In this document: positions 3,537 to 64,000 of the stretch, piece by piece | Layout of the letters: each line of letters opens with the position of its first letter | Numbering within the stretch: the stretch's first letter is position 1 | Assembly: GCA_014905635.1 (NCBI GenBank) | Contig: JABVCE010000040.1 | Coordinates: forward strand, 62,001 to 126,000 | Reading direction: 5' to 3' | Source of the DNA: Scenedesmus sp. PABB004 | Lineage: Eukaryota | DNA: 64,000 nucleotides | Program-made: the position numbers and the translations under genes | The notes under the pieces: generated by a model | Databases searched by the model: none | Told to the model about the DNA's origin: nothing | Seen by the model: the letters and a program-made list of their open reading frames with translations, nothing else

Positions 3537-5841
3537 TCACAGCGGCGACACCGCGCCGCTGCTGGGGTCCAGGCTGGTCACGCCGAGGCGCAGCAGGTCG
3601 TACGCGACAAACTGCACCGCCGCGCCGGGCGCGGTCTTGAGGCAGTTCACGCCCCAGCCGCGCCAGAGCTCGCGCAGCAGCCCGCGCTCGCTCGCCGCCA
3701 TGTGGCGCAGGCAGTGCAGGTAGCCGCGGTACCGCGTGGCCGTGCCGGGCGCGCCGTTGACCTGCATGCGGCGGGGTGCGGCGGGGTGCGGCGGGGCGCG
3801 GCAGGTCGGCGGGTGCGCAAACCCCCCGCGCCCGTCGCCGCGCCGCCGCGCCCCCGACGAGCTGCCGCCGCGCGTCGGGGCGCGCCTGCATGCGGCGGCG
3901 CAGCGTGTCGAGGGGGTACGATGCCGTCTGCGCCGCGATGCCCGCGCCCGCGCCGGCGCCGATCTTTGCAAACGGGTACCACCACGCCTCCTTGCTCTCC
4001 TTGCCGCCCGGCAGCTGCTGCTGCGCGGCGGCGCGCGCGGCGCAGGCGCACGGCGCGGCGCGGCGCGCGGGGGTCGGGCGCCCGGCGGCGCCGGCGCGCC
4101 GCGTGGCCGCCCTGCAGCTAAACCGCGCCCTGCAGCTAAACCCTGCCCCGGAGCTGGCCCTAAACCCCGCCGCCGCCGCCGCGCCTTGAGCGCGTCGTAG
4201 GCGCTGAAGCTGATGCCCATGTAGACCGCCACGCCCGGCAGGCTCATGCCGAGCCCCTGGTACCACCCGCGCAGGCCGCGGTCCGCCCAGGCCGACGCGA
4301 GGCAGCTGGCAATGCCGCTGTAGGGCCGCGCGCCGCCGGCGGGCGTCGCGTCGGCGGTGAGCCGCGTGCGCGAGAGGTCGAGGGGGTAGAACAGCAGCGT
4401 GCGCAGGATGCCTGCAGAGGGGCGCGGGCGCGGGCGCGGGCGGCGCGGGCGGCGGGCGGCTGCGTCAGCGCGGGAGCGTGAGGGGCCGCGGGCTGACTTG
4501 GGGCGCGCGCCGCGGCGGCGATGGCCACGCGCGGCCGCCGCCGGCGCTGGCGCGGCGGCGGCCGCGCACCCGTCGCCGCGCCGGCGGCGACCTTCTCGCT
4601 CACACCCAGCGGGCTGCCGTCCGGGGGCGTGAACATCAGGACAAACTGGTCGTGCACCGCAAACTTCAGGCCGACGTCGGGCACGAGGCGCGCGACGTTG
4701 GCGCCGTTGCCGCGGTACAGCGCCTGGCGTGGGCGCGCGCGCGCGGGCGGGCGGCGGTGAGGCCCGGCGGGCCGCTCGCCCGGCGCCGCCGCGCCGGCCG
4801 CGCCGCCGCGCCGGCCGCTGCGCCGCCGCCGCCGCCGCCGCACCCGCACGCCGCCCTCTCGCTGCGGTATCCGCCGCAGCGCGTCCACCAGCCCCTTGTA
4901 CCGCTCCCCCGCCGGCACGCTGGACATCTGCTGCACCTGCAGCAGAATCTGCGGGGCGCACGCGCGCGAGCGGCGGCGGCGGCGCGCTCAGCGCGCGGCG
5001 CACGCGCGCTGCCGCTCCCGGCGCCGCCCGAGGCCCCCTGCCGCCCGGCCGGCGCCGCGCCGTGCAGCCAGCCGCGCCGTGCAGCCAGGCGCGCCGCGCC
5101 GCTCGCCTCACCTTTACGCGCTCGAGCGGCGCGACCGCAGTCTTGGCGATCGCGCCCGAGCCGCCCGCGCACGCGAGCTGCACCGAGAAGCCGCGCAGGT
5201 TGTCGAGCGCGAGCGCGGTCCAGGGCTCGCGCATGCGGTAGCTGTGCGGCGCGGTGTCTATCGTGAACTCGGCCGCCTGCTGCGCCTGCTGCTGCTGCTG
5301 AACCGGCGGGGGCGGGTGCTGCTGCGGCCCGCCGCCCGGCTGCTGCTGCTGCTGCTGCTTGGGCATGGCGCCCGCGCCGGCGGCGGCGCGCCTGCGGCGC
5401 GGGGCTGCGGCCGCGGGCGGCGCTGCTGCTGCCGCGGCCACGCGGCGGCGCGCGCGTGCGGGGGCGGCGCCGCGGGGCGCGCGCGCATGCCCCGCCTGCG
5501 TGCGTGCGGGGAGCGGCGCAGGGGAAGAGAGGGTGAGGCTGCGTTGGCGCGGCGGCGGCGGCGTGGCGCGGCGCGAGCGGTGGCGGCGACGAGGCGCTGC
5601 GGCGCTGCCTGGCGATGCGCGGGGCGTGCGTGGCGCGGCTTTCAGGTCGTGTGGTCGCCAGCGCCGCGAGGGCGCAGCGGGGGGCGCGGGCAGGCCTGCG
5701 GACGTCGCGGGCAGGCCTGCGGACGCGCGTGGCGGGCGCCAACTGACGCGCGAGCGCGTCCTGTGCGAGCCGCGACATTTCCCGCACCCGCGCCGCGATC
5801 GGAGCGCTGCACGCAGCCCAGGCCTCCACAAAGCCCGCCAT
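3537..5841 (-). CDS. Mitochondrial carrier (SLC25) family protein, CoA/adenine-nucleotide carrier-like
   Basis: Three Px[DE]xx[KR] repeats: [28 protein letters not shown]. Also [15 protein letters not shown] and [14 protein letters not shown]. 5' end uncertain (ATG at 5841 or 5366). Confidence 0.85.
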
Positions 5842-6070
5842 CAATCCGCGCCCGCCCGCCAGGCCGGCGCTTGGCGCCCCACGCCCGCGCTGCGCCCTGC
5901 CGTTGGGCTGCCGGTAGACTGGAGGAGCAGCCCCGATCGGCCGCACAGCGCGAGCCGGGCCAGCCATGGCGCTAGCCTGACGCGAGCAGCGCACGCGGCG
6001 CGAGCGGCGCAGGCGGCGGCGCCGGGCGCCGGCGGGCGGGCGGGCGCCCCGGCGGCGCGGGGGCGGCGCG

Positions 6071-8366
6071 ATGGAGAAGGTGTGCGAGCGCCGCAGCACG
6101 CGCGCGCGCGGGCGCGCGGCGCGCGCGGCAGCGGCGCGCGGCAGCAGCACGGCGCGCGGCGCGCGGCGCGGGGGCGCCGCGGCGCCGCCCGCGCGCCCGC
6201 TGGCCAGGCGCCCGTGTGCGGCGCCCGGGGCCGGGCGCCGGCCCCGGGGCGCCGCGCGCCGCCGCGCGCGGTCGGTCGGTCGCGCCCGCGCTCCTCCGCC
6301 GCCGCCGCCGCCGCCGGGCGGCTCTCTCGACCCCGCCGACCAGCGCACGCGCCCGCGCAACTCCCCCGCCGCACACCGCAGTACGAGAAGATTGAGCGCG
6401 TGGGCGAGGGCACGTACGGCGTGGTGTACAAGGCCCGCGACACGCGCAGCGGCGCGATCGTGGCGCTCAAGAAGATCCGGCTCGAGCAGGAGGAGGAGGG
6501 CGTGCCGTCAACCGCGATCCGGGAGATCGCGCTGCTCAAGGAGCTCGCGCACCCAAACGTCGTCACGTGAGCGCGGCGTCGCGCGCGCCTGCGCGCGGGG
6601 CGTGCTCAGAGTGTGCTGCACGCCGCACGCAGCGCCGCCGCCGCCGCGCGCGTGCGCACCCCCACCCCCCACCCCGACCCGCGCCCCGCCCCGCGCGCTG
6701 CCCCGCGGCGGCGGCGGCGCGCCAGGCTGCACGACGTGATCCACGCTGACCGTCGGCTGTACCTGGTGTTTGAGTACCTCGACCTGGACCTCAAGAAGCT
6801 CATGGACGGCCTGCCGGGCTTCTCAGCAGACCACCGGCTCATAAAGGTGAGAGAGAGTGCGCGTCTGTGCGTGCGTGTGTGTGTGGGTGGTGTGTGTGGG
6901 TGGGTGGGTGGGTGGGTGGGTGGATGGGTGGGTGGGTGGGTGGGTGGGTGGGTGTGTGGGAGGGGGGGGGTGTGTGGCGACGGCGTGTGAATGTGTGCGG
7001 GCGGGCGGCGGCGTGTGCGGGCGTGTGGGCGCGGCGGGGCGCCAGCTCGCGGCGCCACGGCTGCGGCGGCCTCAGCTCCGCGTCGTCCCCGCCCCCGCCC
7101 CCGCCGCCCTCTCCCCCCAGCTGTACCTCTATCAGATGCTCTCGGGCATCGCCTACTGCCACTCGCGGCGGTGCGGCGCGCGCGGGCGGCGGCGTGCGCG
7201 CGCGCCGCCGCCTCCCCACCCACTCGCCCGCACCACCCCCTGCCCCGCCCCCTCAACACACCCGCCCGCCTCCCACTCACGCCCGCCGCCGCCGCGCCGC
7301 TCCCGCCCCTGGCCGCGTGCTGCTGCAGCATCCTGCACCGCGACCTCAAGCCCCAAAACCTGCTCATCGACCGCCAGCACAACGCGCTCAAGCTCGCCGA
7401 CTTTGGGCTCGCGCGCGCGTTTGGCATCCCCGTGCGCGCCTACACGCACGAGGCGCGCCCCGCGCCGCCGCCGCACCCCGCCGCCGCTGGCTGGGCCGCC
7501 GCCGGGGGGCGTTGGCCCGCCGCGCCCGCCGCCGCCGCGGGCCCGCCGCCGCCGCGCTCACGCTCTCAAGCCTCCCTCCCACCCGCCCCACCCGTCCCCC
7601 GCCCGCTCCCGCTCTCCCGCTCTCCCGCTCCCCCTCCCGCTCTCCCGCTCTCCCGTGCGCGGCGCGCAGGTGGTGACGCTGTGGTACCGCTCGCCCGAGA
7701 TCCTGCTCGGCGCCAAGACCTACTCCACGCCCGTGGACATCTGGAGCATCGGCTGCATCTTTGTGGAGATGATCAACCACCGCCCCCTCTTCCCGGGCGA
7801 CTCGGTGCGCGGCGCGGCGCGGCACGCGCCGCCGCGTCGCCGCCAGCACCCCGCGCGCCGACAAAAGGAGCGTTTTGACACGCAACAAAACTGCGTGAAC
7901 CGCCCCACCAAAACCCCGCGCGCAGGAGATTGACGAGCTGCACAAGATCTTCATGAAGCTCGGCACGCCCGACGAGGCGGTGTGGCCGGGCGTGCGCAAC
8001 CTGCCCGACTGGAAGGACACCTTCCCCAAGTGGCGCCCCGTGTCGCTGCAGGCGCGCAGCAGGGCGGCGCGCGCGGCGGCGCGCGCGGCGCCCCCGCCCG
8101 CCGCCCTCCTGCGCGGCGCCTGCGCGGCGCCTCCTCCGCGCGCCGGGCCCGGCGCGCGGCGCGCGGCGCGCGACCTGCCTGGCCGCCGCCGCGCGGCGCC
8201 GCGCTTGCAGGAGATCGTGCCCGCGCTCGACCCGCTCGGCCTGGACCTGCTGGGGCGCATGCTGATGTACGACCCCCAGATGCGCATCACCGCGCGGCAG
8301 GCGCTCGGGCACGCCTACTTCCACGACATCGGCGACGCGACGGCGCAGCCGCTGCGCCTCGGCTGA
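6071..8366 (+). CDS. CDKA1: Cyclin-dependent kinase A (PSTAIRE, cdc2 orthologue), 8 exons
   Basis: A 9-nt first coding exon (MEK) splices to [75 protein letters not shown]. Stop at 8364-8366. Confidence 0.97.
6884..6960. repeat. (GT)n/(GGGT)n simple repeat in a CDKA intron
   Basis: GGGT tandem units seen directly. Confidence 0.85.
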
Positions 8367-8652: not shown

Positions 8653-11600
8653 ATGGCGGAGAGCAGCGACGATCCCTTCGGCGCCTGCACGGCCGGCCCT
8701 GGCGGCTGGGGCAGCGGCGGCGCAGCGCAAGCGTTCGCGCTCGACAACTTCCTGGGCCGCAAGCCCGGGCCGGATGTGAGGCTTGAGGGCCGGCCTTTCG
8801 TGCCGGGGCCGTGGCGAGGGGCCCGCCCTGATTGGCGCGCCGCCCCGCCGCGACGCAGGGAGCGCACGCCGGCGCGCGCAGCAGCGGCGGCGCGCGCGAA
8901 ACGCTCGAGGAGGGCTTTGCCTGCGCCCACGAGCTCGCGGCGGCGCTCGCGGTGCGCGGGGGGCTGTGGCCCTCGACCTCGGCAGCATAGCGCAGCACGC
9001 GCGATGGCGGCCGGCGTGGCCAGGCCCGCGCCGCGCTGCGCACCGCCGCCCGCCTGACATCGGCCGCGCAGGTGGTGGAGGCGCGGCGCAAGCTGCCGCC
9101 GGTGCTGAACGACCGCGCGCTCTTCACGCGCGCCGCGCCGTTTGGCGACCGCGCGGACCTCGCCTACCACGCGCCGTCCAACCGCATCGGGTCGCACCTC
9201 TCGCCCGCCGCCGCCGCCGCCGCGGGCGCGCTGTTCGAGGAGTTCCCGCAGGCGCGCGGGGCGCCGCTGCTGCCGCGCGGCGCGCACGCCGCGCCCGCGT
9301 GGTGCCCGGGCGCTCAGCGGCGCCACTGCCGCAGGACCCGAGCGCGCCGCGCACGCGCGCGGGCCGCCACCGGCCGCTTGGCGAGGTGCGCAGCCCCCAC
9401 AGCAGCAGCCGGCCGCTCAGCCCGGGCGCGAGCGGCGCGCTGTCGCCGGGCGCGACGGCGACGCTCGGCGGCGGCCCCGGCGGCAGCCCCCCGGGCGTCA
9501 AGGCGCGCGCGGCCGCCGCGCTGAGCAGCAGCGCGCCGGCAGCGGCGCACCGGCAGCTCAGCCAGCGGGCGGCGCCGGCGGCGTCCGCAGGTGAGCAGGC
9601 GCGCGCGGCGGGCGCGCGCGGCGGGCGCGCAGCGCCGCTGCGTGGCGCCGCGTGACCCCGCCCCCGCCGCGCCCCGCAACAGGTGCGGAGCGGCCGCGCG
9701 CGTCAGCGGCGGCGGCGGCCGACGCGGCTGGCGTGGTGGACGCGCTGCTGCGGTACAGCTACTACGTTCAGCTCGGCGTGGACTCCCGCCACGTGGCGCC
9801 GTTCCGCGAGGAGTGGCTGGCCGCCGCGCTGGCAAGCGTCCCCCGCGCGCCGCCGCCGCACGTCAGCGAGGTGCGCCCAACGGCGTGGGCGGCGGCGCGG
9901 GCGGCAGCGGCCAAGAGCCGCCAGCTGCCGGCCGGCCTGACCGCCCGCCGGCCGCCGGCCGCCGCGGCAGGCCTTTTACGAGGAGTTTATGGCGGCCGCG
10001 GCCGAGGAGGTGCGCCGGGACTACGGCCACGCGATGGCCAAGGCGGTGGTGGACTACGTGCTGACCAGCCCCCTGGAGCGGCAGCGCCTGGGCCTGGAGG
10101 GCCTGGAGCCGCTGCTGGTGCCGTGCGGCGGCCGCGGCCGCGGCCGCGACGGCCCGCTGCGGCCGCCGCTGGGCCTGCCGTCGCACGCCGCGGTCGTGGC
10201 GCGGCGGCTGCCGCCGGGCTGGCGCGAGCACGTGGCGATGGCCAGGCGAGCGGCGGGGGCGCGCGCGGCGCGATCCCCGAGGGAGCGGAGCGCGGCCGGC
10301 CGGCAGCCGTACGCGGTTGTGGCAGGCGGGCATCCAACCGCGCCGCCGTTGCCGCCGCAGGGAGGACATCTCCTGGACGCTGCAGACTCTGAACCGCGGC
10401 GCGCTGGAGCTCGGCCGGCTGTGGCACGACGGCGGCTACGCGTCGGCGCGGCTGCTCGACGTCGCCAGCCCGGAGCTGCTGGAGCGGCTGCCGGTCAGGG
10501 TGCGTCAGCGCGCGCAGCTCCGCTGGCAGCCGCGCTGCCGTGCCAGCTGGGGCACGCGCCGCGCGCGCCGCCGAGCTCGCCACCGCCGCGCCGGCGCAGG
10601 CGGAGTGGTTCCGGCAGTACCAGCAGTCGGCGACGGAGCAGGTCCGGGGGCAGCTGCTGTCCCACTGGGTGCCCAAGTGCGTGGACGTGTTCCGGCGCCA
10701 CCCGCCCGTCCCCATCAACAACGACAGCGCGGCGTTCTTCAGGCGCGGCGCGCCGCCTCGGCTCTGCGTGGCGCAGCCGCAGCGCGACGTGGCGGACGCA
10801 GGGGCGGCTGCGGCTAGCAGCGGCACGGCAGGGGCGCCGCAGCTGAGCCGCTGGCACCGCCGTCGCACCGCAGGTCGGTGGCGACGCTGCAGAGCAACCA
10901 GCTGCGCGGGCTGGTCGCCAGCTCGCTGGCGGACCTGGCGGCCTTTTTCGCGGCGTACCGCGCTGCGCCCTCAGCGCCAGCGGAGCAGGGCCCAGGCGCC
11001 CGCGCCGTGTTTCAGACGGAGCTGACGGCCGCAGCCGGTGCGGGTGCGGCGGCGGCCCGCCGCGCGCGCGCGAGCCGCCGCGTGCCTGTGCCGCTGCGTG
11101 CTGCGCGTGCCGAGCCCCGCCGCGCCGCCGCGTGCTGGGCGCGCCTTGGCCGCAGGCGCGGTCGGCTTTGAGCCCTCCTTTGCGATGACCACGGCCGCGG
11201 TGCTGTCCGCGCTCGAGGGCGCCGTCGCCGCGGCGGCGGGCCTGCCGCGCATCAGCCCCGCCGCCATCAGCACCAGCAGCCTCGCGCCCCTGCCGCCGGC
11301 GGCGGGCGCCGGCGCGCACGCGGCGGGGGCGGGCGCCATCCCCAGCACTGCCCTGGGCGAGGCGGCGGTGCAGGCGGTGGCGCAGGTGCGGGCGCGCGGG
11401 CGCGCGGGCGCGCGAGTGCGAGGGCGCCCGGCACGCGGCGCCGCCCTGCTGCGCAGCGCGGGCCCACCGGGTGCGTATCCCTGCGCCCGCGCCGCGCGCA
11501 GGACGTGGTCGCGGTGCTGCAGGCCAACACCGCGGCCCCGCTGGCGCTGGCGGCGGCGTTTGAGCCCTTCCTGTCGCTGCTGGCCCTTGAGCCGGCGGAG

Positions 11601-13148
11601 CACGCTGCCAGCTTTGCCGCAGGCAAGCCGGGCCGACTCACTCGGTGCTGCGCGCGCGGCGGTGCGACCGCGGCTCACGCCCCCGCCGCCCGCCACCCCC
11701 GCGACGCGCCGCAGCGGCCGGCGGCGCGGCGGCGCCCGACCTGGAGGCGTTTGGTGCCGAGGTGGCGCGCCTGCAGGCGGCGGCGCGCGCGGTGCGGCTG
11801 CTGTGCGACGACTCCGTGCACACAGGTGGGTGGGGGCGTGCCGGCGACCTGGGGCGGCGCGCCGCCTGCCTCGGCCAGGGCGCCGGCTGGGCCGCCCGAG
11901 CCGCCGCGCTGGTGCCCCCCCCCCCCCCGAAACCCTGAACCCCGGCGCCCGGCGAGCAGGGCTGTTCCAGGTGGAGACCCGGCGCCTCAAGGACGCCCTG
12001 GCCGCGGCGGCGGAGGCCGCGGCGCACGCGCTGCTGGATGTTGTGTGCGCCGCGACGCGCGACGCCAACGTGCGCATCGCCCACGAGTTCCAGGTGCGCC
12101 GGCGACCGGCCGCGTCCCGCGCGCGCGCTGTGCCGCTGGGCCGAGCCCGCTGCCGCGCCGCGCCGCGCCGCTGACTCCGTGCGTCACGCCGCGCCGCCGC
12201 CGCCGCCGCGGCCAGGCGATGACGACCGCGCTCGCGCGGCCGTGCGGCAGCGGGGAGGAGGTGCTGGCGCTGAAGAAGCTGGTCGGCCGCGCCGCGCTCG
12301 ACAGCGAGCGGCTGGGCGAGGGCCTCGCCGCCTGCAGGGCGCGCGACGACTTCCTGCTGCGCCACCGGTGCGGGGCGGCGGCGGCGGCGGCGGGCGCGGC
12401 GGCAGACGGCGGCGCCCTGCTGCAGTGCCGCCGCGCTGCGGCCTGGGCCGGCGCGTGAGCCCGTCGCACCCCCCGCGCCGCGCGCCGCAGGTTCGCCGTG
12501 CCCGACGACGACGTCGAGGCGGCGCGGCGCGCGCAGGGCGGGCCGAGGCGCTTTGCCGAGGCGCTGCGGGAGGCCGGCACGCGCGCGGCGGCGGAGCACC
12601 GCGCGTTTGAAGGCGGGCTCAAGGAGAGGCGCCGCGCGCTTGAGGCGCGCGTCGCGGCCTGCGCGGCGGAGCTTGCCGGCGTCGAGGCGCGCAGGGACGC
12701 CGTGAAGCGCGAGGTGGTCGCGGCGCAGGTGCGCGGCGGGGTGCGCAGGGCGCGCGCGCGGATGGACGGGACGGGCAGAGGGAGAGAGGCGAGGGGGCAG
12801 GGGCGGCGCGCTCGCGGCTCGGCCGCCGACGCCGGCGCGCCCTCGCTGCGCGCGGCGCACGCGCGCGCCAGGTCACCGAGCTGCGGGCCAAGCTGGCGGC
12901 AGCGGTGGCCGAGGCGGAGGAGATCAACGGCCAGGAGAAGATGTTTGGCTTGGCGCCCACCAGGTGCGCCGCGCCGCGCGGCGCCAGCTGCCTGCCCTGG
13001 GCCGGTCCAGGCGCCGCGCGCGTCGCACACACTGACGCCTCCGCCCGCGCCGACGACGCCCGCGCCCACGCCCGCGCCGCGCCCGCGCCGCAGGTTTGCG
13101 CACGTCGCCAAGCTCGCGGCGACGCTAGAGCCGTACGCGGGGCTGTGA
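8653..13148 (+). CDS. Axonemal (inner-arm type) dynein heavy chain N-terminal tail only; no motor domain (truncated gene or pseudogene)
   Basis: RYSYYVQLGVDSRHVAPFREEW...EEVRRDYGHAMAKAVVDYVL, SVATLQSNQLRGLV and EINGQEKMFGLAPTRFAHVAKLAATLEPYAGL resemble the DNAH7/DNAH3-type N-terminal stem (recalled similarity). Ends at TGA 13146-13148 with TGTAA at 13186-13190. Confidence 0.75.
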
Positions 13149-13217
13149 CGGATGGCCGCCGCGGGCGGCGCGGCGCTGGCTGCGGTGTAAGGGCTGCATC
13201 CGCCCATCTGCCCCGCC

Positions 13218-17701: not shown

Positions 17702-20457
<2,756 letters not shown>

Positions 20458-20742: not shown

Positions 20743-20773
20743 CCTGCGCCGGGGGGTGCGCGTGCAAGTGCGG

Positions 20774-24477: not shown

Positions 24478-25854
24478 ATGCTGCTGCGCGCGCCGCCGCC
24501 CGCCGCTGCTGCCTGCGGCGCGGGCGCCGCGCGCCGCGTGCGCGCACAGCGGCCGGCGCCGGCCGGCGGCGGCGGCCCTCCCGCAGCCGCCCAGCTGCTG
24601 GCGTGCAGGGCGGCGCCCGCCGCGCGGCGGCGCCCGCCACGGCGCGGCGGCGCGCTGGCGGCGCGCGCGAGCCTGTTCGACGATCCGCTCGACGCGCGGC
24701 AGCCGGCCAACCCGCACCCCTCGCTCGCCAACGCGGGTGCGCCGCGCACGCCCGCTGCGGCGGCCGCCAACGGGCAGCCGGCCAGGCCAGGCCAGGCCCC
24801 TGCGGCGCGTTGCCACCAAAAAACGCCCGCGCGCCTGCGGCCGCCGCAGACCTGCTGCCGACGCCGGCGGCCGCGCGTTCATTTGGCGCGCTTGAGTTTG
24901 CGAGCCTGTGGGTCACGCTGGTCATCAGCATCACGACCTACGTGCTCGCCGCCAACCTGGTGCAGCTGGGCATGAGCTGGTGGCAGGGCGTCGGCACGGT
25001 GCTCTTCGCAAACGTCCTCACGCTCGTCCCCCTGACCCTGAACGCCCACCCGGGTGCGCGCCGCGCGGCGCGGGTGCCGACCAGGGCCCCGCCCCGCCGC
25101 GCCGCGCCGCCACTCTGGGCCCCGCGCCGCCTCCCGCCAGGCACAAAGTATGGCATCCCTTTCCCGGTGCTCGCGCGAGCCAGCTTTGGCATCAAGGTGC
25201 GGCCAGGCAGCTCAGGCCCCCCCGGGCGGCTGGGGCCGGCGGCCGCCGGCCGCGCGGCGGAGGCCGGGCGGCGCGCGAGTGGGCGCCGCGGCGCGCCGCG
25301 CGGGGGCGGGGCGGGGTCGCGGTCGCCGCCCCGCCATGGACCCGCCGCCGCCTCCGACAGGGGGCCAACCTGCCGTCCCTCGCGCGAGCGCTCGTGGCGG
25401 TGGGGTGGTTCAGTATCCAGACCTGGATCGGCGGCTCGGCGCTGCATCAAATGCTCGCGACGCTCGGCGGCGCGGCGCTCGTGGGCGGCGCGCCGCTCGC
25501 GTGGCTGGGCATCTCCGCCAGCCAGCTCGCCTGCTTCCTGGCGTTCTGGGCGCTGCAGGCGCGCCCGCGGCGCCCCCGCCCGCCCGCCCCCGCGCGGCGC
25601 ACAGCGCGGCTCGTCCGCGGCAGCTCGCCCCGCCCCGCGCCGCGCGGCGCGGCGCCCGGCTGCGCCCGGCCCGGCTCACGGCTCCTGCGCGTGCGCCGTG
25701 CAGGCGGCCATAATCTTTCGTGGCATCGAATGCATCAAAGAGGTCGAGAAGGCCTCCGCGCCCATCCTGGTGGCGCTCGCGGCGGCGCTGATGTGGTGGT
25801 GCGGCCGCCGGCGCCGCGTCGCTCCGTGACCGCGTGCGACGGCTGCTCGCCCGA

Positions 25855-25901
<47 letters not shown>

Positions 25902-29317: not shown

Positions 29318-29409
<92 letters not shown>

Positions 29410-30093: not shown

Positions 30094-30095
<2 letters not shown>

Positions 30096-30182: not shown

Positions 30183-30183
<1 letters not shown>

Positions 30184-31890: not shown

Positions 31891-36041
<4,151 letters not shown>

Positions 36042-40459: not shown

Positions 40460-40499
<40 letters not shown>

Positions 40500-44308: not shown

Positions 44309-44345
<37 letters not shown>

Positions 44346-47409: not shown

Positions 47410-50283
47410 ATGGCCGTGCCCTCGCCCCACCTGGCCGCCTTCTTCCCCGGCCTGCCGGCCGACGCGCCGCCGTGGGCGCCGCCGCCGGGCGACGCGGCGG
47501 CGCGGGACCGCATCGCCCTGCTTGCGCACTACGCCATGACCAGCGGCCCCGCGTTCCTCGCCACCGTGGCGGCCAACCACGGCGACAGCCCCGACTACGC
47601 GTTCCTCCGCGGCGGCGCGGGCGCTGACTTTTACCGCTGGGCGCTGTTCGCGATCGGGTGTGGCCTCTCCCCGCTCGACCCGCCGCCGCCGGCGGGCTTC
47701 GTCCCGCCGGCGCTGGCGCAGCAGCAGGCGCAGCAGCAGCAGGCGCAGCAACAGCAGCCGGGCGCCGGCTACTACGGTCAGCAGCTGCAGCAGCCGCAGC
47801 CGCAGCAGCCGCCCCAGCAGCTCCCTTCGCCGCCGCAGCCGGCGGTGCCGCCGGAGGTCGCCAGCGGGTTCGGCCAGGTGCTGGAGGCACTCACGGGCAG
47901 CAAGGTGCGGGCTGTGGGCGTCACACGCGCCGTGGCCGCAGCGCCGGCGCGCGCCGCCCGCCGACGCGCCGGCCGGCCGCCCGCCCGCCCGCCCGGCCCG
48001 CCGCGCCGCCAGGACTCGATCAAGGCCGGGCAGGGCTGGTTCTCCGCGTGCGCGCGCCACGCGCCGGGCCTCGCGCACATGATGGCGGCGCGCGCGGCGG
48101 CGCTCGTCGCCGGCGGCGGGGCGGGCGCGTTTGAAAAGGCGCTGCATCTCGTCTACCTGGCAAACGACATCCTTTTCAAATCCTTCACCCAGCAGCAGCA
48201 GGCGCAGGCGCAGCAGCAGGCGGCGCAGCAGCAGGCGGCGGAGCCCGACTTCTGCGCGGTGCGCGCCGCGTTCGCGCCGGCGCTCGGCGTGCTCATCGCA
48301 GCCGCGGCGGGCGCGGCGCGGCGCGCCGGCGACGCCGACGGCGGCGCCAAGGTGGACAGGATGCTCGCGTTCTGGGCGAGCAAGGGGCTGCTCGACGGCG
48401 GCGCCGTGGCGGCGCTGCAGGCCGAGGCGGCCGCCGGCGACGCGGCTGCCGCGCTCGCGCGGGCCTACCCTGTGCAGGCGGTGCAGCAGCCGATGCAGCA
48501 GCAGCAGCCGCCTGCGTATCAGCAGGTGCCTGCGTACCAGCAGCAGCAGCAGCCCTCGTACCAGCAGCAGCAGCAGCCCGCGTACCAGCAGCAGCAGCCC
48601 GGGTACCAGCAGCAGCAGCCTGCATATCAGCAGCAGCAGCAGCCCGCGTATCAGCAGCAGCAGCAGCCTGCGTACCAGCAGCAGCAGCAGCAGCCCGCGT
48701 ACCAGCAGCAGCCGGCACAGGGCGGCTGGGGCGCGCCGCTGCCCCACGCAGGCCAGCAGGCACCCGGCTGGGGCGCGCCGCCGCCGCAGTCGGGCTGGGG
48801 CGCGCCGCAGGGCGCGCCGCCTGCCTGGCCCAGCCATGACACGCCGGGGCAGCCGCCGGTGCAGTACGGCCACCCCGCGCCGCACGCGGACGCCGCGTCG
48901 CACGGGCACCACGCGCCGCCAGCAGGTGCGCGGTCGTGCGCGCCGGCGGGCGTGTCGCTGCTGCCCCGGCGCCGCCGCCGCCCGCGAGCTCACCGCGCCC
49001 GCCCGCCCGCCCGCCCACCTGCGCGCAGCGCCGCCGCCGCCGCAGCAGCAGCAGGACGCCGCGATGGCCGCCGCGATCGCGGCCGCGGCGGCCGCGGCGG
49101 CGGCGGCCGCCGCCGCCGCGCAGACGGCGGCGCAGCAGGCCGCGGCGGCCGCGGCGGCGGGCCCGCCGGCCGAGCCGGTGAGCAGCTTCAACTTCCCGCC
49201 GGGGCTCATCCCCTCGCTCGTGCGTGAGAAGAGCCGCTACGCTGACGCCTACGCGCCGCTCGACCCCGCCGAGATTGAGGCCGCGGGCCTGCCGCCGCCG
49301 CCGGTGCGCGACGCATACCTGCGCAGCCGGCTTGCCAAGTTCACGCTCGAGGTGCGCGCGTGTGCGCGCGTGTGCGTGCGCCGCGCCGCACTGTCCCTCG
49401 CGTGCGCCGCGTGCCCGACGCGTCGCGGACGGCGCTGTGTTGCGTGTGCTGGGCTCGTTGCCGTGTTGCTGTCATGTTTTTTTGAGGCGCGCCGTCGCGG
49501 CCTCGGGCTCGGGGCTCGACTCAACCCACGCGCACGCGCGCCGCCGCCCCTGGGGCACACACACCCACGCGCACGCGCGCCGCCGCCCCTGGGGCACACA
49601 CGCACACACAGATCCGGGACTACAAACCCGGCACGAGCCGCGCCGACATGGAGGAGGCCCGCGCGACGGCGCGCGCGCAGCAGGGGCTGGAGCCCGACAG
49701 CGACGAGGCGCGCGGCGCGGCGCGGCGCGTCGCGGGGGCCGCCGCGCGCCGCGCGCCGGCTGCCCCGCGCGCCCAGCGCTGCCCCGCCAATCGTGCCGCG
49801 CCCGCCGCGCGCCCGCCTGCCTGGATGCTCCGCGCAGGAGCTCGCGCTCGGCACGAGCGGCAGCCGGCTCGTGCGGCGCGCGGCGCTCGGCTGGGGCGCG
49901 GGCGCGGGCGGCTCGGACGCGCGCAGCGCGCGGCGCGGCGTGGTCGGCGGCATGGCGGACGACGGCAGCTACGTCGGCCCCGGCGGCGGTGAGCGGCGCG
50001 GGCGGCGGGGCGCGCGGGGGCTGGTGCTGCTGCTGCCGTCGGCGGTCGCAGCGGGGCGCCGAGCGGCGGCGGCGCCCCGCCGACGCGCGCGCCGCGCCGC
50101 GCCGCCGCCGTCGCAGGCCGCGGCGAGCGGCTCGGCCTCGGCGCGCACGGCGCGAGCGCCGCCGCCGAGGACGCGGCCCTGGGCGACGTGTACAGCAGCT
50201 ACCGGCGGCTGCGCAGCAGCAGCTACCACGAGGCCATCGCGAGCGGCGCGGGCGTGTCCAACATGGCGCGCGGCGGGCGGTGA
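47410..50283 (+). CDS. CHERP-like SURP + CID (Pol II CTD-interacting) splicing factor
   Basis: SURP: RIALLAHYAMTSGPAF...DYAFLRGGAGADFYRW. CID: LTGSK|DSIKAG...KALHLVYLANDILF. Also FPPGLIPSLV..YAPLDP and C-terminal DVYSSYRRLRSSSY. Confidence 0.82.
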
Positions 50284-50537: not shown

Positions 50538-52325
50538 ATGGCCCGCCTCGTGCTGCTGCTGCTCGCGGCTGGCGCGGCGCTGGGCGCGCGCGTGGAGGAT
50601 CAGACGCTGCGACTCGTCGGCGTGCCGGAGGCCTCGGCGCACCAGCAGGCGCGCGCGGGCGAGCAGCAGCTCGCGGACAAGGCCGGCGCGCTGCCGGCGG
50701 TGCTCTGGCACGGCATGGGCGACTCCTGCTGCTCCCTCGCCTCCACGGGCGCGATCAAGAAGCTGATCGAGGACAAGCTCGGTGCGTCGCCGCCGCCGCC
50801 GCCGCTCGGGCTAAGCGGTGACCGCCGTGCTGGCGCGCAGCTGGCGGCGCCCCCCCCCGCGGCGCCGCCTGCGCTCCTCCGGGCGACGCCGCGCCCGCCC
50901 GGCAGCGCGGCGCCGACGCCTGGCTCCGCGCGCCGCCGGCCGCCCGACGCGTCGCGCGCCGTCGCCCGCGCCGCGCAGGCGTGTTTGTGCACAGCATCGC
51001 CACCGGCAGCGGCGAGTACGCCGACGTGTGGAGCTCCTTCTATGGCAACGTCAACACCCAGGCACGCGCAGCACCACACCACACGCGCGCCGGCCCTCAC
51101 ACGCAGGCCCGGCGGCGTCCGGCCCTCCCTCGCACACGCACAGCCGCCCGCCCGCAGGTCGACAAGGTGTGCGACGAGCTCGCGGGCATGCCCCAGCTCA
51201 AGGGCGGCTTCAACATGGTCGGCTTCAGCCAGGGCGGCCAGTTCCTGCGGGTGCGGCGCCCGCGCGGTTCGACGGCGGTTCAGGGCGGTTCAGGGCGAGC
51301 GCGGCGCGCGCGCCCGCCGCCGGTCCCACACGCCGCGCCGCGCGCCCGCCCCGCAGGCGGTGGTGGAGCGCTGCGGGCACAAGCTGCCGCCCGTGCATAC
51401 GCTCATCACGCTCGGCGGGCAGCACCAGGGCGTCGCCAACACGCCCGGCTGCGCCGTCGACCTCGCGGGCGCGGCGGCCAAGGCGTGCAGCGCGATGCAG
51501 CTGCTGCTCGCGCGCGGCGCGTACGCGCCGTGGGTGCGGGACAACCTCGTGCAGGCGCAGTACTTCAAGGTGCGGGACGGGGAGAGAGGCGGGGGCTCTC
51601 CCCGCGCAGCGCGACGCAGCGCAGCGCCGCCCCTCCGCCCGCGCGCGCCCTCCTCCCTCCCCGCGACCGCTCCCTAACAATCGTCATGTATAACGCCCGC
51701 CGCCGCCGCACATGACAACGTGACAACGTAACAACCTGACAGGACCCGCACAACCTCGACGAGTACCTGTCGTCCAACGTCTTCCTGCCCGACATCAACA
51801 ACGAGCGCCCCGACAAGGAGCCGGGCTACGCGCGCAACCTCGCGGCGCTGAAGCGCCTCGTGCTGTACCGCTTCGACGAGGACACCACCGGTGCGGCGCG
51901 CGCGGCGCGGGGCGCGGCGCGGCGCGCGGGCCGCTGGGGCGGCGCGGAGCCGCGGAGGCGCTGGGCCGGCGCGCGGGGTGCGCGTGCGGAGGGGGCGGGA
52001 GTTGAGGCTCGCGGCCGAGCGCGCGCGCGCCGCCTTTGACGCCGCCGCCGCCGCCGCCGCCGCTGCCGCTGCCGCCGCAGTCGTGCCGCGCGACTCGGCG
52101 TGGTTTTCGTTCTGGGACGGCGACGCGACGGTGACGCCTCTGTTTGAGCAGCCGATTTTCAAGGAGGACTGGATCGGGCTCAAGCGCCTCTACAACGCGG
52201 GCGGGCTGGAGCTCAAGTCGGCGCCGGGGGAGCACATGCAGTTCACGCTCGACTGGTTTGACGCCGAGATCATCCAGGGCTACCTGGCCGCCGCGCCCGA
52301 CGCGCCCGACGCGCCCGAGGCGTGA
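50538..52325 (+). CDS. PPT1: Palmitoyl-protein thioesterase 1
   Basis: Signal peptide; VLWHGMGDSCC, GFSQGGQFLR (nucleophile Ser), TLGGQHQGV, LVQAQYFK|DP, FLPDINNE, EDWIGLK, GEHMQF. Confidence 0.94.
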
Positions 52326-53027: not shown

Positions 53028-56000
53028 ATGGAGTCCCTGCTGGCGGACATCAGCAACCGCCCCGCAGCGGGCGGCGCGGCGCCGCCGCTGAAGACCTTTG
53101 AGCGCCGGCGCCAGCAGCGGGTGCGGCCGCCCAGGGCCCCCCACCGGCCTCCACGCTGCACCTGGACCGCGTGCCGACCCACCCCGCCGCCCGCCGCAGG
53201 CGGTGCCGGCCTGCGACGAGGGCGAGGCCGTGCCGGCCACGCCGTGCAGCGCTGCCTCCAGCCCCGCCACCAGCAGCTGCGCCAGCGCCCCGACGGCGCC
53301 GCCCTCCGCCCTGGACACCACCACCACGCAGCTGGGCGGCGGCGCGGCGGCGCAGCGGCGCGGGCGCGGCGCGCGGCGCAGCTCGGTGCTGCTGCCCGCG
53401 GCCGCGCTGCCGGGCGCCCGCGGCGGCGAGGCGCCCGCGTCGCGCTCGCTGCTGCTGCAGCGCATGTCGCGCGCGCGCCGCGAGGCCTTTGAGGCGCACA
53501 CCCAGCAGCTGGCTGACTATTACGCTGAGGTGCGGCCGGGCCGCCGCAGCGCGTTGCCTGGCTGGTGTCTGCGGGCCAGCCAGTGCCGCTGGGAGGGCCC
53601 AGCCGCCGGCCGATCGCCGCGCCGCCCGCGCGGCGCAGGTGGACCGCTTTGAGCTGGTTGAGGAGAGCCCAGGCGGCGCGCAGACGGCGGCAAAGACGCG
53701 GCGCCGCGCGGCGCAGCCGCCGCCCTCGCCCGCCGTGCCGCCCGGCATCTCGCGCCTGGTGGAGGGCCTGGCCTGCCGCTCGCCCCAGACCATCTTCAGC
53801 CTGCGCCGCCGCTCCGCCAGCCTGGCCGCCAGCCTGGCTGCGGGCGGCAGCGACGACGAGCGGTGCAGCGACGACGAGCGCAGCTGCGACGCCGCCGGCG
53901 GCGAGCAGCCGGAGGCGGTGGGCGGCCGACGCAGCGCACTGGCGAGCGAGCTGGCCGCAGCGACGCCTGCGAGCGAGCTGGCGGCAGCGACCCCCACCGC
54001 TCGGCTGCCGGCGGGCTCGGCGCGCAGCAGCCTGGCGTCCTGCACGCCCGATGGCGCGGCGCCGCCCTCGGCAGAGGCAGCGGCGGCGCCTGGCAGCGCC
54101 GTCGTACCCGATCTGCGGTGCAGCCCGCCCCCGGCGGGGGCTGCGAGCGGCAGCCCGCCGGCGGCGGCGGCGGCCGCGCTGGGCGAGGCGGAGCAGCTGG
54201 CGCAGCGGCTAGAGCAGCTTGTGGTCGACGCGGGCGGCGACCAGCTGCCCGACCTGGCGGCCACGACGCCCGAGCCCAGCCGCAAGCAGCCGCAGCGTGC
54301 GCGCAAGCAGCCCCAGGCGCCCCCGGCGGCGAGGGAGCCCAGCCAGCGGCAGCAGGCGCGGCGCAAGCAGCGGGACGCTGCAGCGGCGGAGGAGGAGCGC
54401 GGGGAGGACCAGGAGGCGCAGCAGCCTGTGGCAGACCAGCAGCAGGACGCGCAGCAGCTGCCGGCCGCGCACGCTGGCGCCGCAGAGCAGCAGCTGGACG
54501 AGCAGCAGCTGGCGGCGCTGATGCAGCAGCTGTCGGCCGACGCCGCGGCGCAGCAGCTGGCCGAGCTGCAGCTGGCGGCGGCGGCGACCGCGGCGCTGAC
54601 GCCGCTGCAGCAGATGCTGCAGGCCTGCGGCCAGCCGGTGCGCGCCGGGCTGCGGCGCCGCGAGCCGGCCGGCGCGCCGCTTGCGCGCGTGCCTCACGCC
54701 GCGCACATGACCCTGCCCTGCTGCTGCTGCTGCTGCTGCGCTCGGCGCCGCCGCCGCCAGGTGGAGCTGGAGGCCGTGCCCAGCCTCAAGCAGTTCATCG
54801 GGCGCGTCACAGACATGAAGCAGGCGCGTGGGGCGCGGCGGCCAACCCAACCGCCCCAGCCAACGGGGCCGCCTGCTGCCTCTCTCCCGCGCGCCGCGCC
54901 GCTCTTCTCTGCCCCACGCGCGCCCGCGCCCCCGCCCGGGCCCCGGCGCCGCCGCCGCCGCAGGTGGTCAAGCTCGGCGAGGGCACGTACGGCGAGGCGT
55001 TCAGGGCGGGGCCGGTCGTGCTCAAGCTGGTGCCGATGGAGGGCGCCGCGCACATCAACGGCTGGCCCCAGAAGGGCGCGGCCGACCTGCTGGCCGAGGC
55101 GGTCATTGCGACGACGCTGTCGGGGCTGCGCGACGACGCCGACGCGGCCGGTGCGGCGCGGCGGGCGCTGGGCGCGCGCGGCGCTGGGCGTCGGGCGCGG
55201 CGCGCGGGCGGGCGGGCGCGTCAGCCCCTGCCGCCTGCGACCGCCGCGTCCGCCGCAGGCGTGCCGTACCCGAGCCACACGCGCGCGTTTGTGCAGACGC
55301 ACGCGGTCGGCGTCGCGCGGGGGCCGTACCCCGCGCCGTTTGTGCGCGCGTGGCGCGCGTGGGACAAGGCCAACACGTCGGGTGCGGCCGCCGCCCGCCG
55401 CCACCGCGTTGCCGCGCGGCTCCGCGGCCTCCCTCGCACCGCGCCGACCGTGCGGCCGAATGCCGCACGCCGCGCCGCCGCGCCCGCCGGCGTGCTGCCC
55501 GTCCCAACGCGTGCCCGGCGCGCCCGCCGCTGCGCACGGCGCACGGCAGAGAACGATGCCATCGACTCCCACCCGCCCGACCAGCTGTACGCCGTCTTTG
55601 CCATGGCCGACTGCGGGCGCGACCTCGAGGGCTGGCAGCTCGCCGGCTTTGACCAGGCGCGCGCGGTGATCCTGCAGGTGGGCGCCGGGCGCGCGGGGCG
55701 CCGCGCGCAGCCGGCGCGCCGGCAGCCACGCGGCGGGCTCGGGGCGCGCGCCGGCGGTCGCCGCGCGTCAGACCTCGGCCGCGACCCCCCGCGCCGCGCG
55801 CCGCCGCCGCGCAGGTCGCGCTCGCGCTCGCTGTCGGCGAGGACTCGCTCGCGTTTGAGCACCGCGACCTTCACTGGGGCAATGTCATGCTGCGCCCCGC
55901 GCCGCCCGGCGGCGCCGCGACCGCGCGGCTGCGCGGCGCGGCCGTGCGCGTCGCGACGCACGGCGCGGAGGTCTGCCTCATCGATTTCACCGCCAGCCGG

Positions 56001-59541: not shown

Positions 59542-59602
<61 letters not shown>

Positions 59603-60289: not shown

Positions 60290-62586
60290 ATGCTGCTGCC
60301 ACGCAGCTGGCCCGGCAAGCGCCGCGGGGTGCTGCTGCTGGCCTGTGTTTTGGCGCTCGCGCCCAGAACTCAGGTGCGCCGTGGCGTCCGCCCGGCCACC
60401 ACAGCCGCGGCGGGAGTGCTAGTCCTGCCGCTGCTGCTGCCCACGCTGGCCAGGCGCACCCGCGCCGTGGCACGCCCGCCCACCGGTGCATTCTCCGTGC
60501 GACCGACCTCTCCGCAGGCGCAGCAGATCACGCGCGCGCAGGAGCAGAACCTGCCGGCCATCCGGGGGCACCCCCAGCTCAAGACCATCGCCGCGGTGCT
60601 GGCGACGTCGGGCGCCGCCGACGTGATCTCGCCCGCGGCGCGGCTGACCTTGCTGGCGCCGACCGACCAGGCACGGCATCCGCAGCCGCGGCCGCGGCGG
60701 CGGCGGCGGGCCGCGCGCGCAGCGCGCGCAGCGCCTCCGCGCTGTGCGCAGCGCTGCGGGCAGCGCTGAGGCGTCGCGGCGGCGGCGCGGCGCGGCGGCG
60801 CCCCGCAGGCGTTTGCGCGCTTCTTCGCCGAGATGGGCATCGGCCTGGGCCTGCTCGCGCGCGACGAGCCCCTGGCCGACGCCATCGCGGCGTATCACAT
60901 GCTCATCGGCGCGACGCTGGACAGCGACACGATCTTCGCCGTCGCCGCGCGGCGGCGCGCCAAGGCCGGCGCCAACGCTACGCGGCGCGCCGCCGCCGCC
61001 GCCGCCGGGCCGGCGGCGCCGCTTGACCGCGTGACGCTCACGCAGCGCGTGTACACCGCGGCGACGCCGTTTTACGTCACGTTTGGCCGCGGCGCCAACG
61101 CCACGTACGTGCGCGACATGCAGGGCAACGTGGCCAAGGTGACGGGCGTGCTGCGCGCGGGCAGGCACATCGTGCACATCATCGACCGCGTGCTCTACAG
61201 CGGTGCGGCCGCGCGTGCAGGGGCGCGGGGTGCCGGGCGGGCGGGTGTGCGTGCACGCGTGCGGTGTGCGCGCGCACCGCACACACGCGGCGTGGCGCCT
61301 GCGCGGCGCGCAGGTGAGTATTTCAACACCCTGGGCGACCTTGTCGCGGCCTATCCGAGTGGCCTGGGCAGCCTCGGCGCGGCGCTGCGTGACGCGGGCA
61401 TGGGCGGGCTGCTGACGGCCAAGCCCTTCAACGACACGCTGCTCGCGCCCAACAGCAAGGCCTTTGCGGCGGCAAACCTCGCCGCCAAGGGCTTCACCGG
61501 CCGCCGCCTCGCCACGCTGCTGGCCGACCACATCGTCCCCGGCCGCTACACGCTGCCCGGCGGCAAGACCAAGCCCCTCACCACGCTGGGCGGCACGGCC
61601 ATCACCGTTGACGGCCTGAAGTGAGCGCCGCCCGCCCTCCTTTTCGCCCAGTGCCTGCCCTGTGCGCCGTGTGTGTGCCCCCCCCCCAAAACACAAGGGC
61701 CAACGCGCCCCCAACGCAACCTGCCGCGCCGCGCCGCGCCGCGCAGGGGCCCGTCGGGCGATTTCGTGCTCGTCGACACGACCGGGCAGCGCGCGCCGAT
61801 CACCAAGGCCGACCTCTTTGTCTCAAACGTGCGCCGGCAGCGCCGCGCCCGCGCCGGTGCCGCCGCGCCCGCGGCGGTGCAGGCCGACGCGCGCACTGCA
61901 TGCCCGCTGCCGCGCAGGGCGTGGTGCAGGTTATCGGCGCGGTGCTGATGCCTAAGGCCGCCGCGGCCGCTGCTGCCAAGCCCGCCGCGCCCACGCCCCC
62001 CGCGGTCAAGCCCGCCGCGGCTGCGGCCGCTGCGGCCAAGCCCGCCGCGGCCGGCGGGCCCGCGGGCCGCCGCCGCCTCATGCAGCCGTCGACGCCGTCG
62101 TGGGCCACGCCCACCGACCTGCCCAACAGCCAAACCCTGGACGGTGCCGGCACCGCGACCTCCGCCCAGGACGATGCCGACGCGACCATTGAGGGCGTGG
62201 CGCGTCCCAAGCGCGCGGAGCCGGGCACGCCCGGCTGGGCCAACCCCTCCATCGGCTGGGGCAAGGTGCGACCGGCGACGAGGCACGCGCGGGGCGCGCG
62301 CTCTCACCGACCCACACGCGCGGCCCGCCCTGGCGCCCGGCCGCGCGCGCCGCAGTCGATCAGCTGGGACGCCGGCGACACCAACCAGGGCGGGGACACC
62401 GAGGGGCAGATCTCCGGCGCAGTGAGCGCGCGCGCGGCCCGCCCCAGCACGCCGTCGTGGGCGTCGCCGAACATCGACCTGGGCAAGTCGATCAGCGCAG
62501 ACACGTCTGGCACGAACAACCAGAACGCCGCCGAGGCGCAGATCAACGCCGCCGTGGCGGGCTACGACAGCTCTGGCTGCTGCTAG
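60290..62586 (+). CDS. Secreted fasciclin (two FAS1 domains) protein with repeated C-terminal peptides
   Basis: Signal peptide; LTLLAPTDQ|AF, AYHML, IVHIIDRVL (FAS1 #1); TLLAPNSKAF, LADHIVPG, GVVQVIGAVLMP (FAS1 #2). Confidence 0.88.
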
Positions 62587-63121
62587 GCGGCGCCGCTGCC
62601 TGCCTGCTGGGCAGCGCGCGTGCGGCCGGGCCGGCTGCCAGTGCAGCTGCGCTGCATCGGACCGCGGCGCGCCAGGAACGCGCGCGGCGTCCGGACGCGG
62701 GCCCACGCGCTGGGTTCGGCGTCGTGATTTGATGGCTGGCTGACTCAATCGGGGGCATTCGATGGCTCGCTCACTCAATCCAGGGTCGTTCCAACGTTGT
62801 GTGTCCGCGCCCAGCACGGCGCCACGGCGCTGCTGCGCCCGGCCGGGCCCCGTTCCGCAGCGGTGCGCTCGCCGGCTCTGCCGTCGTGGTGCTGGTCGAC
62901 GACGGCCCGTCGACGGGCGGCTCGTTGCAGATGACGGCGCAGGCCTGATGCGCACGTGGCGAGCAGCAGCGGAACAGCGGAACTTCTCACCCCGACCGCG
63001 AACCCTCGTGAAAGCAACGCGCACGCGCGCCGGCGCGATCGTTCCCACTCCCGCTGCCCGCGCTTGTCAGGCGGTGACGGCCCCGCGCCAATCGCCCGGC
63101 GCCCGCGCGCGCGCGTGAAGA

Positions 63122-64000
63122 ATGCCGCTGCAGACCAGCCGGCTCAGGATGCTGCACACCGCGTTGCTGCTGGCCTGCGCCCTGTTGGTGGCGCCCAGAG
63201 CCCTGGTGCGCGGGTTGAGGCGGTCCGGCAAGCCATTAGAGCCCCCGCGCGCGTGGCCGCTGGTGCTGCTCTATCTGACGCACGCTGCCCGGCCCACGCG
63301 CCGCGCGACGCCCGCCCCGCAGGCGCAGCAGGCCACGCGCGCGCAGGAGGAGGCGCTGATGACGGCGATGCAGCCCATCCGGGGGCACCCCCAGCTCAAG
63401 ACCATGGCCGCGCTGCTGGAGACGTCGGGCGCCGCCGACGTGATCACGCCCAAGGCTCGGCTGACCTTGCTGGCGCCGACCGACCAGGCACGGCATCCGC
63501 AGCCGCGGCCGCGGCGGCGGCGGCGGGCCGCGCGCGCAGCGCGCGCAGCGCCTCCGCGCTGCGCGCAGCGCTGCGGGCAGCGCTGAGGCGTCGCGGCGGC
63601 GGCGCGGCGCGGCGGCGCCCCGCAGGCGTTTGCGCGCTTCTTCGCCGAGATGGGCATCGGCCTGGGCCTGCTCGCGCGCGACGAGCCCCTGGCCGACGCC
63701 ATCGCGGCGTATCACATGCTCATCGGCGCGACGCTGGACAGCGACACGATCTTCGCCGTCGCCGCGCGGCGGCGCGCCAAGGCCGGCGCCAACGCTACGC
63801 GGCGCGCCGCCGCCGCCGCCGCCGGGCCGGCGGCGCCGCTTGACCGCGTGACGCTCACGCAGCGCGTGTACACCGCGGCGACGCCGTTTTACGTCACGTT
63901 TGGCCGCGGCGCCAACGCCACGTACGTGCGCGGCGTGCAGGGCCACGTGGCCAAGGTGACGGGCGTGCTGCGCGCGGGCAGGCACATCGTGCACATCATC
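63122..64000 (+). CDS. Second fasciclin gene (tandem paralogue), runs off the window end
   Basis: Signal peptide; IRGHPQLKT, LTLLAPTDQ. Nearly identical to 60640-61180 at the DNA level. Confidence 0.88.

Follow-up and report, generated by a model that had tools for sequence, protein, structure and literature searches.

U2-type introns with GC and AG termini amount to about 1% of introns in animals and plants, and their share averages 1.2% across 121 plant species (PMC6310983). The donor consensus is complementary to the 5' end of U1, and GC donors hold closer to this consensus, which compensates for the change from T to C at position +2 (PMC2490688). Here the 5' splice sites of a 64,000-nucleotide stretch of Scenedesmus sp. 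PABB004 are analysed (contig JABVCE010000040.1, positions 62,001 to 126,000; hereafter the window, in whose own numbering all coordinates are given). Some 16–19% of the introns modelled in the window start with GC directly after an exonic AG.

High shares of GC-AG introns are described for several algae with GC-rich genomes. In Aureococcus anophagefferens the share is given as 39.6% (PMC3033335) or as 14–17% (preprint 10.1101/2024.10.30.620910), in Micromonas pusilla as 22.2% and in Chlorella sp. as 7.7% (PMC3033335, published in 2011). Pelagomonas calceolata has about 14%, while the low-GC Aureoumbra has 0.32% (preprint 10.1101/2024.10.30.620910). In Emiliania huxleyi 56% of 241 curated junctions are GC-AG, nine of them confirmed by reverse-transcription PCR; its authors held GC content responsible and noted that gene finders restricted to GT mis-predict such genes (PMC4028052). 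The U1 5' end is reported as identical to the consensus in Aureococcus and in both Micromonas species (PMC3033335). In Chlamydomonas reinhardtii, data based on expressed sequence tags list 532 GC-AG and 25,053 GT-AG introns (2.1%) and no U12 spliceosomal RNAs (PMC2846911, Table 2).

The introns in the window resemble the U2-type GC-AG introns of animals and plants in their termini, in the closer donor consensus and in the unchanged acceptor, but they are far more frequent than the roughly 1% found there. Their intronic donor, GCGCG(G/C), echoes the local GTGCG(G/C), whereas the general consensus as presented in PMC2490688 is more A-rich. The Chlamydomonas donor consensus resembles GTG(C/A)G. 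Like Chlamydomonas, the organism is a GC-rich and intron-rich green alga, but its GC-AG share in this window is about eight times higher. It shares with the GC-rich algae a high G+C content together with a many-fold excess of GC-AG introns, for which GC content is also offered as the explanation in those papers. The window has a G+C content of 0.745–0.808 in each 4-kb bin (75–81%), compared to 63–70% cited for these GC-AG-rich algal genomes, and is much more intron-dense than pelagophytes. The DNA is nuclear, and its nearest named protein relative comes from Tetradesmus, a chlorophycean, so a chlorophycean green alga is the probable source. Among the papers listed by a literature search none pairs GC-AG introns with Sphaeropleales genus names, which does not exclude that one exists, and close relatives may already stand in the per-species table of PMC3033335.

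The initial annotation had listed 17 GC donors. AG|GC is read at all 17 coordinates, three of them (3885, 4184 and 19284) on the minus strand and the others on the plus strand. The donor hexamer is GCGCG(C/G/T) at 12 sites, GCACG(C/G) at three, and GCGAGC and GCAAGC at one each. The junctions were tested exon by exon through adjacency of profile positions, structure fits, spliced homologues and an intron-less orthologue. Fourteen junctions are fixed by residue-level homology, and on sequence grounds the GC donors at these sites can be regarded as confirmed. The remaining three (11623, 49708 and 54824) come from gene models only.

In the mitochondrial carrier gene (minus strand, compared over 3540–4948) the intron at 3762..3885 (124 nt, cag|GCGCGC) separates position 34 of the Mito_carr profile from approximately position 35, and a GT-AG alternative was not found. 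At the neighbouring intron, 4021..4184 (164 nt, aag|GCGCGG), five unspliced relatives lose homology at 4184. An orthologue without introns at 3885 and 4184 (L001) reads through both junctions in frame and without gaps. It is a metagenome contig of 1,249 bases with 58% GC and the only carrier relative obtained from the metagenome scan.

In CDKA the exon before the intron at 7453..7669 (217 nt, gag|GCGCGC) ends with THE and the next one begins with VVTLWYR; the Pkinase profile is matched up to about position 158 and then from 159 onward, with no GT-AG pair within 45 nt. The second CDKA intron, 8052..8210 (159 nt, cag|GCGCGC), is in frame and stop-free. It lies in an open reading frame (ORF; 7899–8363) whose residues 9–52 correspond to CDK1 208–251 and residues 107–146 to CDK1 253–292. 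Once 8052–8210 (53 codons) is excised, the ORF fits CDK1 without a gap, and the sole GT alternatives cost 4–5 residues. PPT1 presents the same situation: the intron at 51062..51157 (96 nt, cag|GCACGC) is in frame and stop-free within an ORF (50822–51712) of which residues 50–81 match human PPT1 41–72 and residues 111–146 match 70–105. When its 32 codons are excised, Q71 meets V72 without a gap, and the Pfam profile agrees. Retention of these two stop-free introns would add segments rich in Ala, Arg and Pro and would not truncate the proteins.

Three introns of a gene resembling the N-terminal part of dynein heavy chains are placed by spliced homologues. Removal of 9252..9334 (83 nt, cag|GCGCGC) gives a gapless alignment with the homologue P0012, and homology to P0005 starts at its acceptor. 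The intron at 10246..10360 (115 nt, cag|GCGAGC) is gapless against P0006–P0010, P0014 and P0019, and the one at 10743..10873 (131 nt, cag|GCGCGG) against P0019 and P0014. A fourth intron, 11623..11714 (92 nt, cag|GCAAGC), is predicted by the gene model only; a GT-AG alternative is absent within 45 nt.

Profile adjacency also places the introns in THI4 and in the NCS1 permease gene. In THI4 (19062..19284, minus strand, 223 nt, aag|GCGCGG) the exon ends at position 106 of the Thi4 profile and residue 2 of the next exon is position 108. In the permease gene, the last residue of the exon preceding 25559..25703 (145 nt, cag|GCGCGC) falls on profile position 147/148, and the model supplies 37 residues for the 37 positions missing from there up to 185. 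A homologue search with this exon (25361–25558) yielded a single candidate, which was not significant. At the second permease intron, 26090..26219 (130 nt, cag|GCGCGG), the profile passes from 225 to 227 across a split codon. In the IscA-like gene the exons flanking 40848..40984 (137 nt, cag|GCGCGG) are adjacent on the structure chain 2apn_A: exon 3 corresponds to residues 62–95 and exon 4 to residues 98–112, at most one residue apart, with weak E-values of 0.11 and 0.0043. No GT-AG alternative exists at any of these four junctions.

Two fasciclin genes stand in tandem. In gene A the match to Fasciclin profile positions 1–34 ends exactly at the exon end before 60671..60808 (138 nt, cag|GCACGG), the equivalent AP..AF stretch in the second domain of the protein is uninterrupted, and there is no GT-AG alternative. 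In gene B the gene model placed the donor at 63455. This was rejected in favour of 63488 (intron 63488..63625), the donor proposed in the initial annotation, as profile positions 1–34 extend to 63487 and the context is identical to gene A. The two copies are near-identical over long stretches, including the context of the GC donor, and the window stops inside copy B. The pair is a recent duplication. Since the copies are tandem duplicates, 60671 and 63488 were scored as one event, leaving 13 independent homology-fixed GC donors.

Of the sites predicted by gene models, 49708..49837 (130 nt, gag|GCGCGC) lies in a Surp/CID/SWAP gene between exons that match no Pfam profile. The predicted haspin intron, 54824..54963 (140 nt, cag|GCGCGT), is supported on the acceptor side only: the downstream exon matches human haspin starting at its third residue, and a Protein Data Bank search with the upstream exon returned no match. 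A Pfam search with IscA, haspin, SWAP and fasciclin second-exon pieces gave no useful match either.

The FAE1-type KCS gene contains further predicted GC donors on the plus strand. Those at 31990, 32219, 32803 and 34169 appear in both the penalised and the unpenalised gene model described below (stretch 31990..34308), and those at 32486, 32627 and 33230 in the unpenalised model only. The donor at 34169 is supported by the FAE1 profile, which passes from position 232 to 234. The model leaves an 876-nt "intron" (33230–34105) and FAE1 profile positions 159–212 are missing, so this interval must conceal one or two exons.

The frequency of GC donors was estimated with a small Viterbi gene finder written for this analysis, which scores codons by log-odds and splice sites by donor and acceptor matrices that had been trained on GT donors. 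In each of 21 gene regions it was run first with GT as the only donor and then with a second dinucleotide allowed beside GT. An earlier version without site matrices was discarded because it produced too many GC donors and fused genes. The GT-only model contains 117 introns. With GC allowed at penalties of 0, -3.1 and -5, the models contain 132, 129 and 126 introns, of which 37, 29 and 23 use GC donors; 24, 21 and 18 of these, respectively, are preceded by AG. The share of AG|GC introns thus ranges from 21/129 (penalty -3.1) to 24/132 (penalty 0). For this window, the estimate agrees with the about two dozen GC donors and 15–20% of introns counted by hand in the initial annotation. The unpenalised model finds 16 of the 17 claimed donors, and at least one AG|GC donor is present in 12 of the 21 regions.

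Eleven decoy dinucleotides, among them CG, GG, CC, GA, CT, CA, AC, TG, TC and AG, were offered to the gene finder in the same way. At the three penalties any decoy was used at most 41, 14 and 9 times, and after AG at most 9, 4 and 3 times. Allowing GC raised the score by 225 against 150 for the best decoy without a penalty, and by 128 against 64 at a penalty of -3.1. GC donors not preceded by AG number 8–13 and are found mostly at the edges of models; their count is within the decoy noise. For 11 of the 24 AG|GC junctions examined, a search within 45 nt and 6 codons found no GT-AG pair, and GT alternatives at the remaining ones would remove conserved residues. The initial annotation considered the GC donors to be needed, and this is borne out by intron lengths: 15 of the 21 tabulated AG|GC introns are not a multiple of three long and would shift the frame if retained, so their removal is necessary for reading the conserved downstream exons. 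With GT donors alone the model reaches a lower score and gets these genes wrong, and standard predictors would probably err on them as had been anticipated. Annotation restricted to GT donors will mis-model approximately one gene in two here, and gene models for this genome should allow GC donors on condition that AG precedes them.

The modelled introns have a mean G+C content of 85–87% and a median length of 137 nt. In the gene models the local GT donor consensus is (A/C)G|GTGCG(G/C) and the acceptor is GCAG|G; all modelled introns end in AG, mostly as GCAG|G. GC introns appeared to have a stronger acceptor consensus (G at -4 in 95% versus 65%), but this was set aside because the scoring itself selects for G(-4). 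The donor hexamers do not resemble the U12 box, and the GC-AG introns are presumably not U12-type.

The clearest property of the GC donors is the preceding AG. AG occupies -2 and -1 in every one of the 13 independent GC donors fixed by homology, compared to 45 of 100 GT donors (Fisher p = 1.2e-4). In the model without matrices the proportion among GT donors was 31/112, so 28–45% of them are preceded by AG. The claim that GC donors always follow an exonic AG while GT donors are unconstrained is upheld by these counts. The sequence [C/G/T]G|GCGCG is a modelled donor in only 1 of its 435 sense-strand copies, whereas [C/G/T]G|GTGCG is a donor in 36 of 73. Donors preceded by AG are divided into 21 GC and 45 GT (66 in total). 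G at +5 is found in 21/21 modelled AG|GC donors and in 96/100 GT donors. GT donors match the canonical donor consensus, a measure of U1 complementarity, at 5.63 positions on average and AG|GC donors at 5.36 (p = 0.19). Both donor classes prefer C at +4 (69% and 90%).

Many database proteins related to these genes are unspliced ORFs that run into the intron, and the residues following the junction therefore reveal the donor. The initial annotation had proposed comparing orthologous donors in relatives, and such a comparison was possible at three sites. At the dynein-like site 10246 all five read-through relatives (P0001, P0003, P0004, P0005 and P0011) show R-C-V/G, which corresponds to AG|GTG(C/T)G. 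At the carrier site 4184, K is followed by V in five of five relatives, which likewise indicates a GT donor. At CDKA site 7453, V (GT) follows in 104 of the 120 relatives listed, A (GC) in eight, and six are intron-less; on inspection one of the last two has V and the other has THD followed by A. The intron-less relatives read THE and then VVTLWY. The four closest relatives among those listed (95% identity) have V and thus a GT donor.

Since relatives have GT at the orthologous donors, GC is the derived state in at least two introns of the window. The eight CDKA relatives with Ala after THE are P0040, P0042, P0045–P0047, P0053, P0069 and P0157, and in several of these the read-through A-S-F or A-S-L fits a GCAAG-type donor. 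This ancient CDKA intron has turned GC independently in a few other lineages. The carrier orthologue L001 (positions 1–1249) has the first two carrier introns, of which the clearly read one has a GT donor, and is without both GC-donor introns. It lacks the 4184 intron, and five other relatives possess it with GT, so an intron was lost or gained within the group.

The GC donors of the window probably belong to ordinary U2-type GC-AG introns at an unusually high frequency, driven by GC bias and compensated by AG. Intron interiors contain 45.5% C and 8.3% T (C/(C+T) = 0.85). A strong bias toward G and C would drive T at donor position +2 toward C, and C would persist only where the rest of the donor pairs well with U1, through exonic A(-2)G(-1) and G(+5). 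The pairs at -2 and -1 would offset the one lost at +2, donors lacking exonic AG would remain GT, and no change in the splicing machinery would be required. The A(-2)G(-1) and G(+5) pattern is observed directly; U1 pairing would be what lies behind it. An unconstrained site would be expected to have C over T in about 85% of cases, and the actual share of C at +2 is approximately a third among donors after AG and essentially nil among the rest. Selection for T at +2 would then be weak in AG-preceded donors and strong elsewhere. The initial annotation had already attributed the GC donors to extreme GC pressure turning GT into GC wherever exonic AG compensates. As a driver this is plausible in view of the intron composition and the GT donors of relatives, but "wherever" is too strong, with GC in only 21 of 66 such donors.

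Several observations weigh against this explanation. The decoy dinucleotides are also used to some extent, so the models hold false introns, and the GC-AG fraction depends on a purpose-made gene finder and one 64-kb window. Splicing at the GC donors is deduced from homology and reading frame, and three of the 17 claimed sites come from gene models. The donors are unevenly distributed: they account for 4–7 of the 11–12 KCS introns but for none of nine in the exchanger gene and 0–1 of eight in the helicase gene. Uniform mutation pressure alone does not account for this spread. The motif AG|GC[GA][CA]G occurs 61 times on the gene strands, with 20 copies used as donors and 20 located inside modelled exons. 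These 20 unused exon-internal copies mean that the motif alone is insufficient; such copies are cryptic sites that stay silent or else belong to in-frame introns overlooked by the models. Mutation bias or biased gene conversion as the cause is something that we infer, and GC content alone leaves the difference between the two Micromonas species unexplained, as noted by Iwata and Gotoh (PMC3033335).

The initial annotation concluded that an altered U1/U5/U6 or U1C recognition rule is implied. In its general form this explanation assumes that the lineage recognises 5' splice sites differently and tolerates C at +2, through a change in the U1 5' end, the U6 ACAGAGA box, U1C, LUC7 or PRP8. The eightfold excess over Chlamydomonas (PMC2846911) speaks for such a change, as does C at +4, which is unpaired with the canonical U1 end in both donor classes. 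Iwata and Gotoh also leave U1 small nuclear ribonucleoprotein (snRNP) proteins or base modifications open for GC-AG-rich algae (PMC3033335). However, the conclusion does not follow from the donors themselves. Pairing with a canonical U1 would itself make A(-2)G(-1) and G(+5) a strict requirement, the summed complementarity of GT and AG|GC donors is similar, and most AG-preceded donors (45/66) still have GT. The precedents point in the same direction: the U1 5' end matches the consensus in the two best-studied GC-AG-rich algae according to PMC3033335, and AG compensation is described as ordinary for GC-AG introns in PMC2490688. The window itself says nothing about small nuclear RNAs (snRNAs), as an Rfam scan of its 64 kb found no snRNA gene, and none of the U1, U6, U1C, LUC7 and PRP8 genes is on its gene map. 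A changed recognition of the 5' splice site is hence unlikely. It is equally doubtful that a shifted component (a U1 snRNP protein, a base modification or U6) makes C at +2 nearly neutral given A(-2)G(-1). If it did, AG|GC would be a second regular donor class, and its concentration in KCS and the dynein-like gene would represent regulatory use.

That same concentration also speaks for another explanation, in which selection favours GC donors as weak sites where intron retention or alternative splicing is regulated, and they are not merely tolerated as products of GC bias. GC donors are tied to regulated splicing in animals (PMC2490688), and six of the 21 tabulated introns have in-frame lengths, three of them at verified sites (8052, 51062 and 60671). 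The closest named relative of the dynein-like gene, P0001, is a transcript-derived protein that keeps the orthologous intron, although there the donor is GT. Against this, retention would shift the frame in the other 15 introns, and GC donors are present in the housekeeping genes CDKA, THI4, IscA and PPT1, which makes selection for regulation very unlikely. A more trivial possibility is that the GC donors are chance AGGC motifs picked up by hand modelling, with the true donors being nearby GT or other termini. AGGC does occur 377 times on the gene strands, the gene finder also selects decoys, and three claimed sites lack homology support. Chance motifs would nevertheless not yield 14 of 17 junctions fixed to the residue, nor 11 junctions without any GT-AG pair and others where the alternatives delete conserved residues, nor 21 AG-preceded GC donors where no decoy exceeds four. 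This possibility is extremely improbable and already largely refuted.

The GC-AG introns of the window are a further case of a pattern known from GC-rich algae and open no new mechanism; they matter mainly for annotation and as clean data on how splice sites evolve under compensation. Few genomes are on record as rich in GC-AG introns, and the green alga studied here, intron-rich and with an extreme nuclear GC content, joins them. The absolute AG requirement and the orthologous GT-to-GC comparisons come from the present analysis and not from the algal papers. The restriction of GC to donors after AG, together with the GT states in relatives, is useful for gauging selection on T at +2 against GC-biased substitution.

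The gene content of the window was determined by assigning Pfam domains to stop-free ORFs, which carry eukaryotic domains on both strands. Besides the carrier and CDKA (plus strand), it includes a Na/Ca-exchanger-like gene, the dynein-like gene (8800–13148, plus strand), a papain/RCC1 gene, THI4 (18024–20298, minus strand), the NCS1 permease gene (24165–27898, plus strand) and the KCS gene (31891–36041, plus strand). Also present are a DEAD helicase gene, a PNP_UDP_1 gene, the Surp/CID/SWAP, PPT1 and haspin genes (these three on the plus strand), a gene for an S14/S29 ribosomal protein and the fasciclin genes (60101–61998 and 63122–64000, plus strand).

Riboswitch control of THI4 is known from Chlamydomonas. 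The sole Rfam match in the window is a full-length thiamine pyrophosphate (TPP) riboswitch (RF00059, 63.7 bits) at 20762–20871 on the minus strand, which is also that of THI4; the first modelled THI4 exon follows about 460 nt downstream. The riboswitch looks like a control element of THI4. No second riboswitch reaches the Rfam gathering score in the window. THI4 and the NCS1-family permease gene (Pfam "cytosine/purines, uracil, thiamine, allantoin") are separated by about 4 kb that holds one unknown gene, and may form a thiamine-related neighbourhood.

The dynein-like gene (9,000–13,150 in the domain survey) has no Pfam match, and its similarity to axonemal dynein-heavy-chain-like proteins is confined to their N-terminal part. 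Its best match is from the Tetradesmus deserticola transcriptome (61% identity over one exon), and its relatives include a JGI/IMG entry named "dynein heavy chain, axonemal". The model of about 820 residues ends with a stop at 13148 and the next gene is on the opposite strand. The dynein-like gene is either a short stand-alone relative or truncated. The dynein-like relative P0007 and the carrier relative P0037 both give a longest contig of 226,751 bases in JGI/IMG, an indication that the two genes are neighbouring there as well.

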